Below, one piece after another: positions 55,256 to 62,689 of a stretch of 64,000 bases of DNA (positions within the stretch are counted from its first letter, which is position 1; each line of letters opens with the position of its first letter). Source of the stretch: an uncultured Candidatus Rokubacteria bacterium (GTDB lineage: Bacteria; Methylomirabilota; Methylomirabilia; Rokubacteriales; CSP1-6). Below the pieces are notes generated by a model. That model was given only the letters and a program-made list of their open reading frames with translations. It searched no databases and was not told the DNA's origin. A program made the translations under genes and the position numbers. The stretch lies in contig CAWBMV010000006.1 of NCBI GenBank assembly GCA_963789955.1, forward strand, positions 192,001-256,000, given 5' to 3'.

Positions 55256-55785
55256 CAGGACCTGTACGCGTAGGCATCGTGCTCGGCAGCGACAGCGATC
55301 TCGAGGTGATGCTCGAAGCCGTGAAGGTACTCGACGCGCTCGAGGTCGGGAGCGAGGTCGTCGTCACTTCGGCGCATCGAACGCCGGAGCGGACTCACGA
55401 ATACGCCACGACGGCGCACGCCCGCGGGCTCGGCGTGCTCATCGCCGGCGCCGGCGGCGCCGCCGCGCTTCCCGGCGTGCTCGCGGCCTCGTCGCCCTTG
55501 CCGGTCATCGGCGTGCCGGTCGCGTCGACGCCGCTCGGCGGAATCGATGCGTTGCTCTCGATCGTGCAGATGCCGAAGGGCGTCCCGGTCGCGACCGTCG
55601 CGATCGGCAAATGGGGCGCGGCGAATGCCGGTCTGCTGGCCGCTCAGATCCTGGCGGTCGGAGATCCAGCGCTGGCCGCGCGGATCGCGGCGTATCGCAA
55701 GCGGTTGGCCGACGAGGTGGACGAGCGCGCGCGCAAGGTCGCCGCGCAGATGAAGTCGGGCGGGCCGCCGAAGTCGGGGACGTGA
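55252..55785 (+). CDS. purE: PurE (N5-CAIR mutase / AIR carboxylase)
   Basis: GSDSD, SAHRTP, PVIGVP, QMPKGVPVATV. Confidence 0.93.
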   Translation: MTGPVRVGIVLGSDSDLEVMLEAVKVLDALEVGSEVVVTSAHRTPERTHEYATTAHARGLGVLIAGAGGAAALPGVLAASSPLPVIGVPVASTPLGGIDALLSIVQMPKGVPVATVAIGKWGAANAGLLAAQILAVGDPALAARIAAYRKRLADEVDERARKVAAQMKSGGPPKSGT

Positions 55786-56458
55786 CGGGCCCCGACCGGT
55801 CGCGCGTCCTCGCCGTCGACCCCGTTGCGCCCACTCGAGCCGCGCTACGCACCGCCGCCGACACGCTCCGCGCCGGTGGCGTGGTGGCGCTTCCGACCGA
55901 GACCTTCTACGGGCTCGCCGTCGCCGCGCTCGACGCCGGATCGGTCAGGCGCATCTTCGAGCTGAAGGGACGGCCCGACTCCAAGCCGCTGCTCGTCCTC
56001 GTCGACTCGGTCGCGATGACGGAGACCGTCGCGCACGTGACCCCATCGGCGCGCGATCTCATGACGCGCTACTGGCCCGGCGCGCTGACCCTGGTCATGC
56101 CGGCGCGCGCCACGGTGCCGTCCGTCGTGACGGCGGGAACGGGCACGCTCGGCGTTCGTCTCTCGTCCCATCCGGTCGCGCGCGGCCTGGTCGAGCTGCT
56201 CGGCGAGCCGGTGACGGCGCCGAGCGCGAACCCGAACGGGCTGGCGCCGCCCACGACCGCGGCCGGCGTGCTCGACGCATTTCCCCGAGGGCGTCGATCT
56301 CATCCTCGACGGCGGCCCCACTCGCGGCGGTGAGCCGTCGACGGTGCTCGATCTCACCGTGGACCCGCCGCGCGTGTTGCGGCAGGGCGCGGTCGTCGTG
56401 CGGGACATCGCGGGGCAGCCCGGGGAGCATCCAGCCGTCGCGGACGAGGCCGTCGTGA
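55782..56458 (+). CDS. tsaC: Threonylcarbamoyl-AMP synthase (Sua5/YrdC); frameshift near 56285, 3' end uncertain
   Basis: PTETFYGL, KGRP, WPGALT, APSAN, PSTVLD, LRQG. Confidence 0.88.
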
Positions 56459-57051
56459 AGGTCAGCGGCGTCATCCAGGCCGGGGGCCGGAGCGCGCGCA
56501 TGGGCGGACGGCCCAAGGCCTTGATCGAGCTCGGCGGCCGGCCGATCATCGAGCGCGTGCTCGCGGCACTGGCGCCGGCGGTCGACGACGTGCTCGTCGT
56601 GACCAACACCCCCGAGCTCTACGCGTTCCTCGAGCTGCCGATGGTCGGCGACGTCTACCCGGATCACGGCTCGCTCGGCGGGATCTACTCCGGTCTCGAG
56701 GCCGCGGACGGCGCGGCGGCGCTCACGGTCGCCTGCGATATGCCGTTCCTCCATCCCGACGTGGTCAAGCTCGTCGCCGCGCGGGCCGGTGAGGGGGACG
56801 TCGTGATCCCGCGAGTCGGGAGCCGGCTCGAGACCATGCACGCCGTCTACGACAAGGCCTGCCTGCCGTACATCGCCGAACGGCTCGTCGCCGGACGGCT
56901 CAAGATCGTCGACTTCTTCGAGCGCGTGCGCGTGATCGAGATCGCCGAGGATGAGGTCGCGCGGTTTCGCGACCCGCGGATCGTCTTCATGAACGTGAAC
57001 ACACCGGACGATCTCGAGCGGGCGCGCGCGCTCGCGGCGGAGCTCGGCTGA
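56455..57051 (+). CDS. mobA: Molybdenum cofactor guanylyltransferase
   Basis: AGGRSARMG..KA, GSLGGI, ACDMPF, NVNTPDD. Confidence 0.85.
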   Translation: MKVSGVIQAGGRSARMGGRPKALIELGGRPIIERVLAALAPAVDDVLVVTNTPELYAFLELPMVGDVYPDHGSLGGIYSGLEAADGAAALTVACDMPFLHPDVVKLVAARAGEGDVVIPRVGSRLETMHAVYDKACLPYIAERLVAGRLKIVDFFERVRVIEIAEDEVARFRDPRIVFMNVNTPDDLERARALAAELG

Positions 57052-57053
57052 GC

Positions 57054-58230
57054 ATGGCCAGGCTGCGCCACGTGGTGCTCGTGCACTATCACGAGCTCGG
57101 TCTCAAGCGGGGCAACCGGCCGCTGTTCCTCCGCCACCTCGCGCGGAATCTCCGCCGCGCGACCTCCGATCTCGGCCCGGTGAACCTGCGCCAGGTGTCC
57201 GGCCGCCTCTTGCTGGAGCTGGACGAGCATCCCGACCCGGCGGCGGTCCGCGACCGCGTGCGTCGCGTGTGCGGCGTCGCGAGCGCGGCGCTCGCGTACC
57301 GCGTCGTGTCGACGGTGGAGGCGATGAAGGCGGTCGTCGCCGAGCTCGTCGAGGGCCGAACCTTCGCGTCGTTCAGGATCTCGGCGCGCCGAGCGTTCAA
57401 GACCTATCCGCTCACGAGCGTGGAGCTCAATCGCCAGCTCGGCGCGTTCGTGCTCGAGCGCGTCGCCACCAAGGTCGACCTGCGCCAGCCGGAGCTCGAG
57501 ATCCACGTGGAGGTGATGCCCGCCGAGACGTTCGTCTACGTCGATCCGGAGCCCGGTCCCGGCGGACTTCCGGTCGGCGCGAGCGGCACCGTCGCCGCGC
57601 TCCTGTCGGGAGGAATCGACTCGCCCGTCGCCGCCTGGCGCATGATGAAGCGCGGCTGTCGCGTCGTCTTCGTCCACTTCCACAGCGTGCCGTACCTGCC
57701 GCCCACCTCGCAGGCCAAGGCGCGCGCGCTGGTCGAGCGGCTGACCGCAGTGGCAGTACGACTCGACGCTCGTGCTGGTACCGTTCGGCGAGATCCAGCG
57801 CGAGGTGGTCCTGACGGTCCCGCCGCCGGCGCGCGTCGTGATCTACCGCCGCCTGATGGTGCGGATCGCCGAGGCGCTGGCGCGCAAGCACGGCGCCGTC
57901 GCGCTGACCACCGGCGAAAGCCTCGGTCAGGTCGCGTCGCAGACGCTCCCGAACATCGCACGCATCGACGAGGCCGCGACGATGCCGATCCTGAGGCCGC
58001 TCATCGGCATGGACAAGCTCGAGATCACCGAGCAAGCGCGCCGGCTCGGCACGTTCGAGATCTCGATCGAGCCGGATGCCGATTGCTGCACCTTGTTCGT
58101 TCCAAAGCATCCCGCGACGCACATGTCAGAGCACGAGGTCGGAGCGGTCGAGGCTCGTCTGGACATTCCGCGGCTGGTCGCCGCCGGCTCGGACGGCGCT
58201 TCGGTTGACGCGTTCGCGTTCCCGGCCTGA
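57054..58230 (+). CDS. thiI: tRNA 4-thiouridine synthase (THUMP + PP-loop, no rhodanese domain); frameshift near 57748
   Basis: ELGLKRGNR, LSGGIDSPVA, TGESLGQVASQT, DCC. Confidence 0.92.
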
Positions 58231-58764: not shown

Positions 58765-59995
58765 CACCGATCCCGAGGTCGCCAAGGTGCTGCGCGCGGA
58801 GGCGCAGCGGCAGAACCGGAACCTCGAGCTGATCGCCTCCGAGAACTTCGTGTCCGAGGCGGTGCTCGAGGCGGTCGGCTCGGTGCTGACGAACAAGTAT
58901 GCCGAGGGCTATCCGGGACGCCGCTACTACGGCGGCTGCGAGGTCGTCGACGTGGTCGAGGACCTGGCGATCGCGCGCGCCAAGGAGCTCTTCGGCGCCG
59001 AGCACGTCAACGTCCAGCCCCACTCGGGCGCCCAGGCCAACATGGCCGTCTACTTCACCTTGCTCAAGCCCGGCGACACCGTGCTCGGCCCGAATCTCTC
59101 TCACGGGGGCCATTTGACGGCCGGAAGCCCCGTGAACTACTCCGGCAAGTTCTATTCGATCGTCGCCTACGGAGTACGCAAGGACACCGAGCGCATCGAC
59201 CTGGACCAGGTCCGCGATCTGGCGCGCCAGCATCGGCCCAAGATGATCATCGCCGGAGGATCCGCCTTTCCGCGGGCGATCGACTTCGCGCCGTTCGGCG
59301 AGATCGCGCGCGAGGTCGGCGCTATGCTCATGGCGGACATCGCGCATCCGGCCGGGCTCGTCGCCGCCAAGCTTCACCCGTCCCCCGTCGGCATCGCCGA
59401 CTTCGTCACGACCACCACGCACAAGACGCTTCGCGGCCCGCGCGGCGGGATGGTCATGTGCCGTGCGGCGCACGCGCAGGCGCTCGACAAGACCGTGATG
59501 CCCGGCGTGCAGGGCGGCCCGCTGATGCACGTGATCGCCGGCAAGGCCGTGGCGTTCCGGGAAGCCCTCACGCCGGCGTGGCGAGGCTACCAGCAGCAGA
59601 TCGTGAAGAACGCGGCGGCGCTCGCCGCGGCGCTGCTTGGGTACGGCTACCGGCTCGTGACCGGAGGCACCGACACGCATCTCATGCTGCTCGACCTGAC
59701 CACCCGGAACATCACCGGAAAGGACGCCCAGGAGGCACTCGACCGCGCCTGGATCACCGTCAACAAGAACACGGTGCCGTTCGAGACCAAGAGCCCGATG
59801 GTGACCAGCGGCGTCCGCATCGGCACGCCCGCGGTCACGACACGCGGCATGCGCGAGGCCGAGATGGCCGAGATCGCCCGCCTCATCGACCAGGTACTGG
59901 CCAATCTTGGATCCTCGTCGGTCGAAGCGAAGGTGCGGGGAGAGGTGCAGGAGCTGACGAATCGGTTCCCGCTTTATCCGGAGCGAACCCGATGA
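58748..59995 (+). CDS. glyA: Serine hydroxymethyltransferase
   Basis: [26 protein letters not shown]. Confidence 0.97.
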
Positions 59996-60026
59996 CCCAA
60001 CCGGCATCGGGAAAGGGGGGAGCCCG

Positions 60027-60530
60027 ATGAAGTGCCCGTTTTGCGGTCACACGGAGGATCGGGTTGTCGACTCGCGGGTGGGCCGGGACGGGGAGTTCAT
60101 CCGGCGCCGCCGTGAGTGTCTCAAGTGCCACCGCCGGTACACGACCTACGAATACATCGAGGACGTGCTGCCGCACGTGGTCAAGCGCGACGGGCGCCGC
60201 GAGCCCTTCGACCGCCAGAAGCTTCGCGGCTCCATCTTGAAGTCGTGCGAGAAGCGGTCGGTCGGCGTGCAGGCCGTCGACGACGTCGTCGTCGAGATCG
60301 AGGCCCAGCTGCACGAGCGGGCCGAGAAGGAGATCAGCAGCGAGGAGCTCGGCCGGGTGGTGATGGACCACCTCCAGCGCCTGGACCCGGTCGCCTACGT
60401 GCGGTTCGCGTCGGTCTACCGTCAATTCAAGGACATCGGCCAGTTCGTCGAAGAGGTGAAGGGGCTCCAGCGGGACGACAAGACCAAGCCCGCCCCGGCG
60501 AAGCCACGCCCCCTTGCCAAGACCAAGTGA
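60027..60530 (+). CDS. nrdR: Transcriptional repressor NrdR
   Basis: MKCPFC...RRRRECLKC zinc ribbon, ATP cone, AYVRFASVY. Confidence 0.97.
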   Translation: MKCPFCGHTEDRVVDSRVGRDGEFIRRRRECLKCHRRYTTYEYIEDVLPHVVKRDGRREPFDRQKLRGSILKSCEKRSVGVQAVDDVVVEIEAQLHERAEKEISSEELGRVVMDHLQRLDPVAYVRFASVYRQFKDIGQFVEEVKGLQRDDKTKPAPAKPRPLAKTK

Positions 60531-60542
60531 CCGGGTCGGTTG

Positions 60543-60588
60543 AAATAGCGCGGCCCTGCCGATGGAGTCGGATCGACAGGGCCGAGCG
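60543..60588 (-). terminator. Hairpin terminator, best formed on the minus strand
   Basis: Minus strand CGGCCCTGTCGAT-loop-ATCGGCAGGGCCG (one G-U pair) followed shortly by TATTTC. Confidence 0.6.
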
Positions 60589-60599
60589 CCGCGTGGGCC

Positions 60600-60638
60600 C
60601 TACTTCTTCTTCTTTTTGGTCGCCTTCTTCTTCGCCAA
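60600..60638 (-). CDS. 12-aa lysine-rich micropeptide MAKKKATKKKKK
   Basis: AAGGGAGGTGAGG SD, TTG start 7 nt after GGAGG, TAG stop, own promoter and terminator. Confidence 0.65.
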   Translation of the reverse strand: MAKKKATKKKKK

Positions 60639-60685
60639 CGCCTCACCTCCCTTCGCCGAACGACGAATCGCGTATCTAGCTCGGC

Positions 60686-60714
60686 ATGCTAGTGAGGTGG
60701 CAAAAATCTGTCAA
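60686..60714 (-). promoter_or_regulatory. Sigma70 promoter for the micropeptide unit
   Basis: Minus strand TTGACA-17 nt-TAGCAT. Confidence 0.7.
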
Positions 60715-60721
60715 GACCAAA

Positions 60722-60769
60722 AGTCAATACCTGGGGGTCGTCGAGCATTTCGCGCCCCATATATAGGGT
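60722..60769. promoter_or_regulatory. Tandem NrdR-box-like sites
   Basis: AGTCAATACCTGGGGG (60722) and GCCCCATATATAGGGT (60754), 32 bp apart, compared with consensus acaCwAtATaTwGtgt. Confidence 0.6.
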
Positions 60770-60779
60770 CGTCCGTAAA

Positions 60780-60808
60780 TTGACTTCCCGGGGGCCGCGA
60801 TGTAGCGT
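60780..60808 (+). promoter_or_regulatory. Sigma70 promoter for the radical SAM gene
   Basis: TTGACT-17 nt-TAGCGT. Confidence 0.6.
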
Positions 60809-60871
60809 GAGCGCACGGTCGGGGCACGGCCCATCACCCATAACTTTCCGCTCTTGAGGAGATCTCCCTCG

Positions 60872-62689
60872 ATGAGACGCGCGCTTAAGAAGCTTGTGTT
60901 CGTAGAACCGAAATCGACGCATCTGCACATCTATAGCCGGGTCTGTATTCCGCGCATCGGCTCGGTCCTGCTCGGCACCATCATGCGGGCCAAGGGCTAC
61001 GACGTCCGGGTCTACATCGAGGACATCCAGCCCCCCGACATGCAGGAAGTGCTCTCGGCCGACCTCGTCGCGATCTCGGCCATTACCTCGACGGCGCCGC
61101 AGTCCTACCGGCTGGCGGACCAGGTCCGCGCGGCGGGCGGAATTGCCGTCCTCGGCGGGACCCACGTGAGCTTCCTGCCGGAGGAAGGGCTCGAGCACGC
61201 GGACTTCGTCGTCCGCGGTGAGGGCGAGTTCGCGTTCCAGGAGCTCGTCGACGCCATCCAGGCCGGTCACGGGTTCGAGCAGATCAAGAACCTCTCGCAC
61301 ATCGTGGACGGGAAGGTGGTCAACCACCCGGAGCGCCCGAAGATCCCGAATCTCGACGTGAACCCGATTCCGGACTACAAGCTGATCACGGGCTGGAAGC
61401 CCGGCGGGGTCATCTCGGTCGCGACGTCGCGCGGCTGCCCGTTTTCGTGCACCTTCTGCTCGGTGCCGGGCATGTACGGCCACGCGTTCCGCACCCACTC
61501 GGTCGACCGCGTGCTGCAGGAGCTCGAGAGCCACCGGGGCAACGCCTATACGTTCTTCGCGGATGACATCTTCACGGCGAACAAGAAGCGCGTGAAGGAG
61601 CTCCTGCGCGGGATGATCGAGCGCAACCTCATTCCCGATTGGGGCGCCCAGGTCCGGACAGAAACCGTCGACGATCCCGAGCTCCTCGAGCTCATGCAGG
61701 CGGCGAACTGCTTCAACGTCTACGTCGGCTTCGAGTCCATCAATCCCCGGACGCTCAAGCTCTTCCAGAAGAAGCAGGACCTCGCGAAGATCGAGCGCTC
61801 GATCGAGCGCTTCCACGCCCACAAGATCCGGATCCACGGCATGTTCGTGGTCGGGTCCGATGAGGACGACGTCGAGACGATCGACGCCACCGCCGAGTTC
61901 GCGCTCAAGAACGACATCGACTCGATCCAGTTCATGATCCTGACGCCGATTCCGGGCTCGCCCGACTGGGAGCAGCTCTACGACCGCGGCGACAAGTACG
62001 TGATCAGCAAGAACTGGCAGTTTTACGACGGCCACCACGTCGTGCACCAGCCGCGGCGCATGAGCCCGTACGAGCTGCAGACGGGCGCGCTCGACGCCAT
62101 GGCGAAGTTCTACTCCTGGCGCGGTATCGCGAAGAAGCTCCTGAAGGGCGACCACTACTACGCGGCGATCCGGTACTTCGGCAAGCGAATGGTCCGCGAC
62201 TGGTGGAAGGACGACGAGAACCGCCAGCACGTCGAGTGGCTCAAGGCTCAGCTCTACTCGGATGCGAAGGAGCTCGGGCACCATGCGCTTCAGCGGGTGG
62301 GGCTTCCGGCCATCCTGCTGCAAGATTCCGTGGGACGCCTGCTCCAGCGCTTCCTGGGCGAGCTCGGCGTGACCGTCGTGCCGCTCGCGGAAGCCGCGGC
62401 CGAAGGCGCGGCGCGCGCCAAGGAAACCGTCGACTGCCTGATCACGCCGATCGTGAAGCGCGCGGTGAAGGAGCGCGAGGAGTTCTACGCGAATCTCGCC
62501 ACCGTGAACACCTTGCTGCAGAGCCAGTGGGAGAAGCTGCCACGCGTGAGCTTCCCGCTGCTCGACGGCCAGGGACCGGTGTTCGAGCCGTTCGCCAAGA
62601 TCGGTCTGCTCTTCACCAAGAACCTCGACCGCATCCGCGACGCCTACAAAACCGCCGGGGTCGCTGAAGGTCTCTGGGAAGCTGCGTAG
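60872..62689 (+). CDS. B12-binding domain radical SAM protein with extra C-terminal domain
   Basis: N-terminal cobalamin-binding-like region (GGTHVS, VVRGEGE), SRGCPFSCTFC, FADDIF, VGFES; SD GAGGAG. Confidence 0.88.
   Translation: MRRALKKLVFVEPKSTHLHIYSRVCIPRIGSVLLGTIMRAKGYDVRVYIEDIQPPDMQEVLSADLVAISAITSTAPQSYRLADQVRAAGGIAVLGGTHVSFLPEEGLEHADFVVRGEGEFAFQELVDAIQAGHGFEQIKNLSHIVDGKVVNHPERPKIPNLDVNPIPDYKLITGWKPGGVISVATSRGCPFSCTFCSVPGMYGHAFRTHSVDRVLQELESHRGNAYTFFADDIFTANKKRVKELLRGMIERNLIPDWGAQVRTETVDDPELLELMQAANCFNVYVGFESINPRTLKLFQKKQDLAKIERSIERFHAHKIRIHGMFVVGSDEDDVETIDATAEFALKNDIDSIQFMILTPIPGSPDWEQLYDRGDKYVISKNWQFYDGHHVVHQPRRMSPYELQTGALDAMAKFYSWRGIAKKLLKGDHYYAAIRYFGKRMVRDWWKDDENRQHVEWLKAQLYSDAKELGHHALQRVGLPAILLQDSVGRLLQRFLGELGVTVVPLAEAAAEGAARAKETVDCLITPIVKRAVKEREEFYANLATVNTLLQSQWEKLPRVSFPLLDGQGPVFEPFAKIGLLFTKNLDRIRDAYKTAGVAEGLWEAA

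Follow-up and report, generated by a model that had tools for sequence, protein, structure and literature searches.

The window, i.e., the whole stretch of 64,000 nucleotides that was analyzed, contains a short segment on the minus strand that lies between nrdR and the gene for a B12-binding radical SAM protein and carries the signals of a complete transcription unit (Table 1). Named GTDB records that share its DNA and neighbors belong to Rokubacteria, which places the window in the Rokubacteriales (phylum Methylomirabilota). The original prediction of such a unit stood in all of its parts: the promoter, the Shine-Dalgarno (SD) sequence, the TTG start codon, the 12 codons (eight of them for Lys), the TAG codon, and the TATTTC tail were all found as claimed, and on the strand claimed.

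Table 1. Features of the predicted transcription unit and its two neighbors in the window.
Feature	Position	Strand	Remarks
−35 hexamer TTGACA	60709..60714	-	sequence read; promoter scan
−10 hexamer TAGCAT	60686..60691	-	17-nt spacer from −35
Putative transcription start	near 60679	-	inferred position
5′ leader with small hairpin, not conserved	60654..60679	-	length and sequence vary among relatives
Shine-Dalgarno AAGGGAGGTGA	60643..60653	-	pairs over 12 bp with the 3′ end of the 16S rRNA of the same genome, −21.4 kcal/mol
TTG start codon	60638-60636	-	
12-codon ORF (TTG start, MAKKKATKKKKK, TAG)	60600..60638	-	eight Lys codons (seven AAG, one AAA)
Terminator-like hairpin, 13-bp core 60584-60551	60548..60587	-	stem kept in relatives, loop varies
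Short U-rich tail TATTTC	60542..60547	-	weaker than a canonical intrinsic terminator tail
nrdR, convergent downstream neighbor (outside the unit)	60027..60530	+	
B12-binding radical SAM gene, divergent upstream neighbor (outside the unit)	60854..62689	+	

TTGACA-17-TAGCAT was the sole σ70-like site found by the promoter scan in 59500-62000 (shuffle mean 0.3). A pattern combining promoter and SD had one match in the window and 0 in 100 shuffles; because it was derived from the site itself, this count reflects rarity, not function. The hairpin, which had been predicted to pair better on the minus strand, indeed did so when compared with shuffled sequences (z −2.99, versus −1.28 on the plus strand); it was not called by the terminator scanner because its U-tail is short. 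The whole predicted RNA of ~138 nt was as structured as its shuffles (z −0.18), and an Rfam search of the window gave no match at gathering scores. An antisense RNA to nrdR was considered and rejected because there is no overlap, nrdR ending at 60530 and the hairpin tail at 60542. NrdR itself has a short Lys/Pro/Ala tail at its C-terminus (window 60461-60530, +), beside the terminator of the peptide gene, and in several members of the genus short GC-rich palindromic repeats are inserted between this terminator and nrdR (L004:1810-2010, L006:1810-1950, and L010). Elsewhere in the window, a thiI-like ORF (57054-; window 56344-58230, +) and a Sua5/TsaC-like ORF (window 55785-56340, +) seem, by eye, to be frame-split near 57770 and near 56330, respectively, maybe because of assembly frameshifts.

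The variation among relatives indicates that the 12-codon ORF is under protein-level selection. The search of related genomes for an SD followed by a short Lys-rich ORF, which the original prediction had named as a check, was carried out, and SD and frame were found to be kept and the variation to be synonymous: across 15 orthologs from the genus, which were selected for similar flanks, with the SD as anchor and without a codon filter, and which, being kin, are not independent, pN was 0.012 and pS 0.32 (pN/pS about 0.04). Ten sites vary in this set; seven are third positions (synonymous or TAG/TAA stop-to-stop), one is an exchange of the start codon (TTG/GTG/ATG), and two belong to a single Lys-to-Gly codon. 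A pattern lacking the SD, whose middle gap of 0-12 nt permits 13 spacer lengths, five of them in frame, had 153 matches in Methylomirabilota genomes, and all of those listed (150/150) keep the stop codon in frame; the reversed control of this pattern had 0 matches. AAA-AAA codon pairs were rarer than in within-gene shuffles, irrespective of whether 24 low-GC genes (11 versus 23.7 expected; 0/5000 shuffles) or 51 high-GC genes (3 versus 7.3 expected; p 0.028) were considered. Upstream, a promoter of the form TTGACA-N16-18-xAxxxT was present in 24/24 single-copy orthologous loci, a count that leaves out five tandem loci and one unpublished locus. The 5′ leader diverges in length and sequence while the spacing of the SD stays, and the terminator stem is the only fold that is kept; across relatives, neither a convincing conserved fold nor covariation was found in leader or transcript outside that stem. 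A dual-function sRNA, which had been offered as one possible identity, is therefore unsupported. Synonymous-only variation, frame-keeping length changes, the interchange of start and stop codons, the kept promoter and SD, and the existence of paralogs (see below) strongly support a stand-alone micropeptide gene rather than a leader peptide. Judged from these sequence comparisons, the gene is very probably translated, i.e., a real gene, and, to our knowledge, it ranks with the shortest stand-alone genes for which protein-level selection is clear.

The SD is stronger than that at the best start of every one of the 3343 long ORFs in the genome. It ranks sixth of 91 genome-wide sites at or below −16.5 kcal/mol, with one tandem copy of the gene ranking second, and 33 of 107 gene copies have a GTG or TTG start. 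Other small ORFs were seen in the same genome. At G000:C22:524912 (+), a basic micro-ORF of 19 aa (MAKGTGMRKETKKPKKKKK) has an SD of −21.7 kcal/mol and lies, by eye, between dioxygenase-like and ABC-ATPase-like genes; the pattern derived from it was found in 3/5 relatives. A 13-aa ORF at G000:C1:493242 (+) (MCNPTVICEVVAS), whose SD could pair with about 16 nt of the 16S 3′ end, lies in a long spacer that is bounded, again by eye, by a comEA-like gene and by a cold-shock-like gene in convergent orientation. Two Lys/Ala-rich ORFs are located at G000:C1:~630920 (−) and C34:~563850 (−), one of ~50 aa and one of ~100 aa that is Pro-rich with a Lys/Ala/Arg tail.

When 3658 SD-led short ORFs of the genome were scanned, only four contained at least 30% Lys, namely, the studied gene, a tandem pair on contig C34 (12 and 10 aa), and a 9-mer that is unrelated to them. 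The tandem paralogs at G000:C34:854673 and 854768 (L031:5673-5800, +) each have a strong SD and are flanked by an AbiEi_2-like gene upstream, a convergent rpmB, and two GC-rich hairpins behind. A DNA search up to the order level matched 61/61 genomes, the distant ones mostly over SD and ORF only, and all 30 order-level loci fetched hold a Lys-rich ORF (35 genes, 10-13 aa). The strict SD-free pattern matched 96 of 201 genomes of the phylum; of the nonmatching ones, 37 of 40 chosen were matched by a looser SD-start-KKK pattern, which catches ordinary genes too, and the loci fetched show variant and longer peptides. Judged from these searches, Rokubacteria and their relatives usually keep two or three copies of the gene per genome, the number staying at about 1-3 in genomes of 2-9 Mb. 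The order, phylum, and locus-context tallies include the unpublished genomes G025, G179, G096, G140, and G105, which the set of 107 copies omits and on which none of the conclusions depends.

A census of 104 loci placed the Rokubacteriales gene at two fixed positions, locus A and locus B. At locus A (38 loci), it is divergent from the radical SAM gene or lies behind a phosphoribosyltransferase gene, which takes the place of the absent radical SAM gene in six of the 38; downstream, nrdR is convergent in 24, an EamA transporter gene is co-directional in 11, and the gene is unknown in three. At locus B (38 loci, with the AbiEi-like gene in view), a tandem pair (a single gene in four loci) follows an AbiEi_2-like gene and faces a convergent rpmB, encoding L28, in 38/38, and the radical SAM gene is a neighbor in none of the 38. 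A RiPP precursor modified by the radical SAM enzyme was rejected as a candidate because of this inconstant linkage and because the product has only 12 aa. Changing and often convergent neighbors exclude a general role as RiPP or leader peptide, in agreement with the initial view that a leader-peptide position is unlikely next to a convergent gene. The AbiEi_2-like gene (349 aa, type IV antitoxin-like; L031:4600-5649), which immediately precedes the tandem peptides and is vertically conserved throughout Rokubacteriales, has no AbiEii toxin directly behind it, and no solved structural relative of it was found. In other orders of the phylum, the tandem peptides are preceded by an HTH-nucleotidyltransferase and HEPN pair (PADLOC PDC-M05A/B; L313:313-1321, L310:428-1433, L301, L308, L311, and L149), to which the AbiEi_2-like gene showed no relation (hhalign probability 0.4%). 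The HEPN member of this PDC-M05-type pair lacks the catalytic His of the usual RxxxxH motif, and the transferase motif is degenerate in most, which suggests a domesticated regulator.

The 107 distinct copies from the phylum consist of 66.6% K, 22.5% A, 3.9% T, 2.4% G, 1.9% P, 1.3% R, and 0.2% E, compared with 2.8% K and 9.0% R in the long ORFs of the genome; Arg, aromatic residues, and His hardly occur. Their products span 10-27 aa, 51 having 12 aa and 19 having 13 aa (70/107), with about four entries beginning a few codons early, and one further copy from the phylum has 32 aa. Within a single family, forms of 23 aa occupy the same tandem position. In Methylomirabilis and other orders, products of 12-32 aa are encoded by genes of equal anatomy, and the pmoA-bearing Methylomirabilis-type genomes (two of two tested contained pmoA) have tandem versions of 17-32 aa with AAPKK-type repeats. 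In Nitrospirota, 31/81 genomes matched the SD-start pattern. Stand-alone Lys-rich ORFs of 12-64 aa with an SD of the GGAGGTGA type and KKK ends were present in 18 of the 30 loci fetched there, the longer ones carrying histone-H1-like Lys/Ala/Pro repeats; the remaining 12 loci proved to be ordinary genes or noise.

Outside these phyla, the occurrence of similar ORFs was patchy. A scan of GTDB gave at least 125 matches in at least 116 loci, and among the matches listed 100 were in frame; the 25 of 125 listed that were out of frame are mostly N-termini of long genes from AT-rich genomes (23 run for at least 40 aa) and were set aside. Beyond Rokubacteria, the listed matches include records labeled Patescibacteria, DPANN archaea, Armatimonadota, Brocadiales, Phycisphaerales, Binatia, Eisenbacteria, and Goldbacteria, although some of these labels are plainly wrong. 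Stand-alone look-alikes of 9-12 aa were, among the matches listed, scattered over Patescibacteria and DPANN archaea. The strict pattern matched 5/61 Brocadiales genomes, three of them real-looking, including one doubtful case, and 13/301 Patescibacteria genomes, three of them with SD and intact frame; with such patchiness in both groups, the notion that the peptide is typical of ultrasmall cells as a rule is unsupported. Since low-complexity sequences converge easily, the cross-phylum look-alikes may be homologs or convergent. In Patescibacteria-type genomes, pure-lysine ORFs of 9-10 aa lie between serS and secA (L040, L056, L069, L080, L091, L093, and L105), with a conserved hairpin repeat behind them, some of these records being labeled Gammaproteobacteria; in three of these loci, inspected by eye, the ORF has its own promoter and a U-tailed terminator ahead of secA. 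Viral candidates were discarded: 49/120 matches were in frame, among at least 120 loci, and they are mostly C-termini of longer basic ORFs without SD. Phage ORFs such as L186, L193, L199, L200, and L244, among others, carry Met-Ala-Lys-run tails on longer basic proteins, and the viral L192 is possibly a stand-alone micro-ORF with an SD. Plasmids yielded four partial matches only, none covering 80% of the query.

Several known systems resemble the peptide in part. The chlamydial Hc2 (PF07382, NF038052) and the H1-like proteins of Burkholderia and Bordetella (NF038053, BpH1) are likewise low-complexity Lys/Ala/Thr/Pro proteins with in-frame length variation; Hc2 is, however, described as having 165-237 aa and evenly spaced pentamers and as including Arg (PMC2848022), whereas the studied peptide has 12 aa and two Lys blocks. 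The 107 copies share the Lys-rich, Ala/Thr/Pro-spaced, acid-free composition of H1-like proteins but not their many repeats and length of about 150-240 aa, the product having 12 aa here and at most 64 aa in look-alikes. As the 12-mer is below the 20-aa minimum of the model searches, longer members were used: seven of seven members of 20-25 aa gave no match to the H1-like models, and eight Nitrospirota members of 25-64 aa reached at best 17.1 bits against a cut-off of 40 and 19.8 against 80, the forms of 33-64 aa giving weak, sub-cutoff H1-like matches (PF07382, E 0.006; NF038053, E 0.0008). Family and structure searches with longer members gave nothing above cut-off, and an Atlas feature match at 0.92 (HC2 on 17% of members) is a lead only. 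The C-terminal KPAA tails of Pseudomonas AlgP and PhaF, and eukaryotic H1 C-terminal tails, are likewise Lys-Ala-Pro-rich and disordered and bind DNA or polyphosphate by charge, as reported (PMC11894788, PMC11331069). In those cases, the tail belongs to a larger protein with a folded domain, whereas here a tail about ten times shorter is the whole product and has its own promoter and terminator. In its presumed working, the peptide resembles the tails of Hc2, AlgP, and H1, but it lies outside these families by length and model score. Polyamines and protamines are small polycations neutralizing nucleic acids, too, but the former are metabolites and the latter Arg-rich, and the studied peptide would be a ribosomally made, Lys-only 11- to 12-mer. 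From a collection of 15 billion proteins, for which the 12-mer is too short for look-up, 10/11 longer members were absent, and one was present as "hypothetical protein". No description of the gene was found in the open-licence literature, supplements (e.g., Table 5 of PMC5712423 and small-protein catalogues) and most subscription journals aside.

Sequencing runs were inspected over the locus. Of the 22 runs listed, 18 (14 RNA, nine studies) hold part of 60300-61100, and none holds half of it. Four runs, all consisting of contigs, were examined in detail, and in three of them the summed depth rose over the ORF; the rise comes from contigs that match 60600-60637 alone and have foreign flanks. 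At the loose ends of these ORF-only contigs, two listed look SD-like, and the remaining ones are internal Lys repeats. A single contig, near-identical to the locus, spans the promoter and may be DNA. Contig depth over the ORF was consequently not taken as evidence of transcription, and the high expression put forward in the original prediction is something we infer from the promoter and SD signals.

Concerning function, we lean toward the peptide being a minimal, H1-tail-like nucleic-acid binder that is driven by charge and contributes to DNA compaction, this being the most likely reading of the sequence data. The near-consensus σ70 promoter would yield an RNA of about 138 nt, the unusually strong SD would load ribosomes so that the peptide accumulates, and removal of Met would leave an unstructured 11-mer with a net charge of about +8. 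This 11-mer would bind nucleic-acid phosphates by charge, without a fixed pocket, and would most likely help to neutralize and compact the chromosome beside HU and polyamines. The free length variation, the preference for Lys over Arg in GC-rich genomes, and the grading into Lys/Ala/Pro repeats argue for an H1-tail-like binder rather than a ribosomal protein filling a pocket. Of the functions originally proposed, a nucleic-acid-binding polycation is therefore the best supported, at the strength just given. ε-Oligolysines of charge +3 to +10 are reported to condense plasmid DNA in vitro (PMC2790876), and Rokubacteria, with large genomes in cells of 0.3-0.4 µm, have been proposed to need "extensive DNA packaging or dormancy" (PMC5712423). 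According to the literature cited here, H1 tails are well-mixed Lys/Ala/Pro copolymers, Lys condenses DNA less strongly than Arg (PMC11331069), and K8 particles are less stable than those of K16 or longer (PMC4991294). The studied peptide has two Lys blocks, unlike the well-mixed H1 tails, and this counts against compaction, as do the findings on Lys versus Arg and on K8. The tight length of 12-13 aa in Rokubacteriales could point to a defined binding site and speaks against a binder relying on charge only. Free short peptides are usually degraded fast, which speaks against accumulation. The genome has five HU/IHF matches and a spermidine-synthase-family match, and HU and polyamine genes were found in 5/5 genomes tested; a role as substitute for missing HU or polyamines was therefore rejected, the peptide replacing nothing that is missing. 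A copy number of one to three whatever the genome size indicates no scaling with DNA content. By our own arithmetic, half-neutralizing 6.8 Mb at +8 takes about 8.5 × 10^5 peptides per chromosome, more than such a small cell could be expected to hold if the peptide condensed the DNA alone. Thus, the peptide is at most one contributor to DNA compaction.

Instead, the peptide may occupy an acidic rRNA pocket as a ribosome- or RNA-associated factor of the bTHX, bS22, or eL41 type or as a hibernation aid, which we regard as unlikely. Like the peptide, bS22/COX24 (PF08213), bTHX, and eL41 are very short and basic, have a strong SD, and are missed by gene callers. Near-universal presence in the order, strong conservation, and very strong translation signals would suit such a factor, as would the tandem locus facing rpmB in all 38 loci; this rpmB is, however, convergent, not co-transcribed. 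Hc2 is reported to bind RNA and to repress translation (PMC2848022). Against a ribosomal factor speak the length range of 10-27 aa, with 23-aa forms even at the same tandem position, the usual two to three copies per genome, and the lack of a PDB sequence match for a 25-aa member. The bS22/COX24 proteins of the phylum have about 31 aa, are Arg/His-rich, and are encoded by a separate gene, found in two of five genomes tested (G067 and G200), whereas the length-variable, multicopy peptide has hardly any Arg, His, or aromatic residues; the PF08213 search of the studied genome itself gave no match anywhere. The ribosomal comparison drawn at the outset therefore captures size, charge, and translation signals but fits less well in length, Arg content, and gene identity.

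With a lower probability again, translation itself might be what matters, in that an over-strong SD, a weak start, and a Lys run would act as a sink for ribosomes and Lys-tRNA or as a sensor of lysine supply, as in the minigene effect. An SD outdoing that of every long ORF, GTG or TTG starts in close to a third of the copies, codons of which two-thirds specify Lys, and tandem copies behind toxin-antitoxin-like regulators are all compatible with this. AAA-AAA pairs, which promote ribosome sliding, are however avoided in the Lys-rich genes, and the non-Lys residues are conserved with synonymous changes; moreover, the Ala/Pro repeats of longer members are ordered, as expected if selection acts on the peptide. 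By analogy to AlgP, there is a slim chance that polyphosphate granules or other polyanions are what the peptide binds. AlgP is H1-like, has 54 KPAA-type repeats, and is described as localizing to polyphosphate granules (PMC11894788), and the longer members share its residue types, but AlgP additionally has a folded N-terminal domain, and no polyphosphate gene was present among the neighbors scanned. A noncoding RNA, a repeat element, or a chance ORF is very improbable: the unit is short and self-contained and its purine-rich run is of low complexity, but the low pN/pS and the uniformly kept frame, the constancy of SD spacing while the leader diverges, the lack of covariation outside the terminator stem, the empty Rfam search, and the merely partial plasmid matches all speak against it. 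A lysine-sensing leader peptide attenuating a downstream gene, for which the same-strand EamA gene in 11/38 locus A loci and the seven same-strand serS-secA loci could be cited, is hardly credible given the convergent nrdR in 24 of the 38, the convergent rpmB at every tandem locus, the promoter and terminator ahead of secA in the three loci inspected, and a terminator hairpin that is intact in three EamA loci, as judged from minimum-energy folds alone.

Annotation has missed a gene that is multicopy and near-universal in a widespread soil lineage, and tryptic proteomics is blind to its product. Longer relatives sit in pmoA-bearing genomes of the Methylomirabilis type, a group that has been grown in enrichment culture. 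To return to the charge-driven nucleic-acid binder, a wider scenario, which we put forward tentatively and hold to be rather doubtful as a whole, is that several uncultured lineages (Methylomirabilota, Nitrospirota, and some Patescibacteria and DPANN archaea) use gene-encoded oligolysines of 9-13 residues as an abundant part of their chromatin that has escaped notice, a "peptide polyamine" with transcription controlling its supply; in Rokubacteria, it might help to fit a genome of 6-8 Mb into a cell of 0.3-0.4 µm, and the tandem copies may be switched by the domesticated toxin-antitoxin-like regulators at the entry into dormancy. If the peptide does bind the nucleoid, it would add a minimal component, consisting of nothing but an H1-like tail, to bacterial chromatin and would be a concrete candidate for how Rokubacteria pack large genomes into tiny cells.
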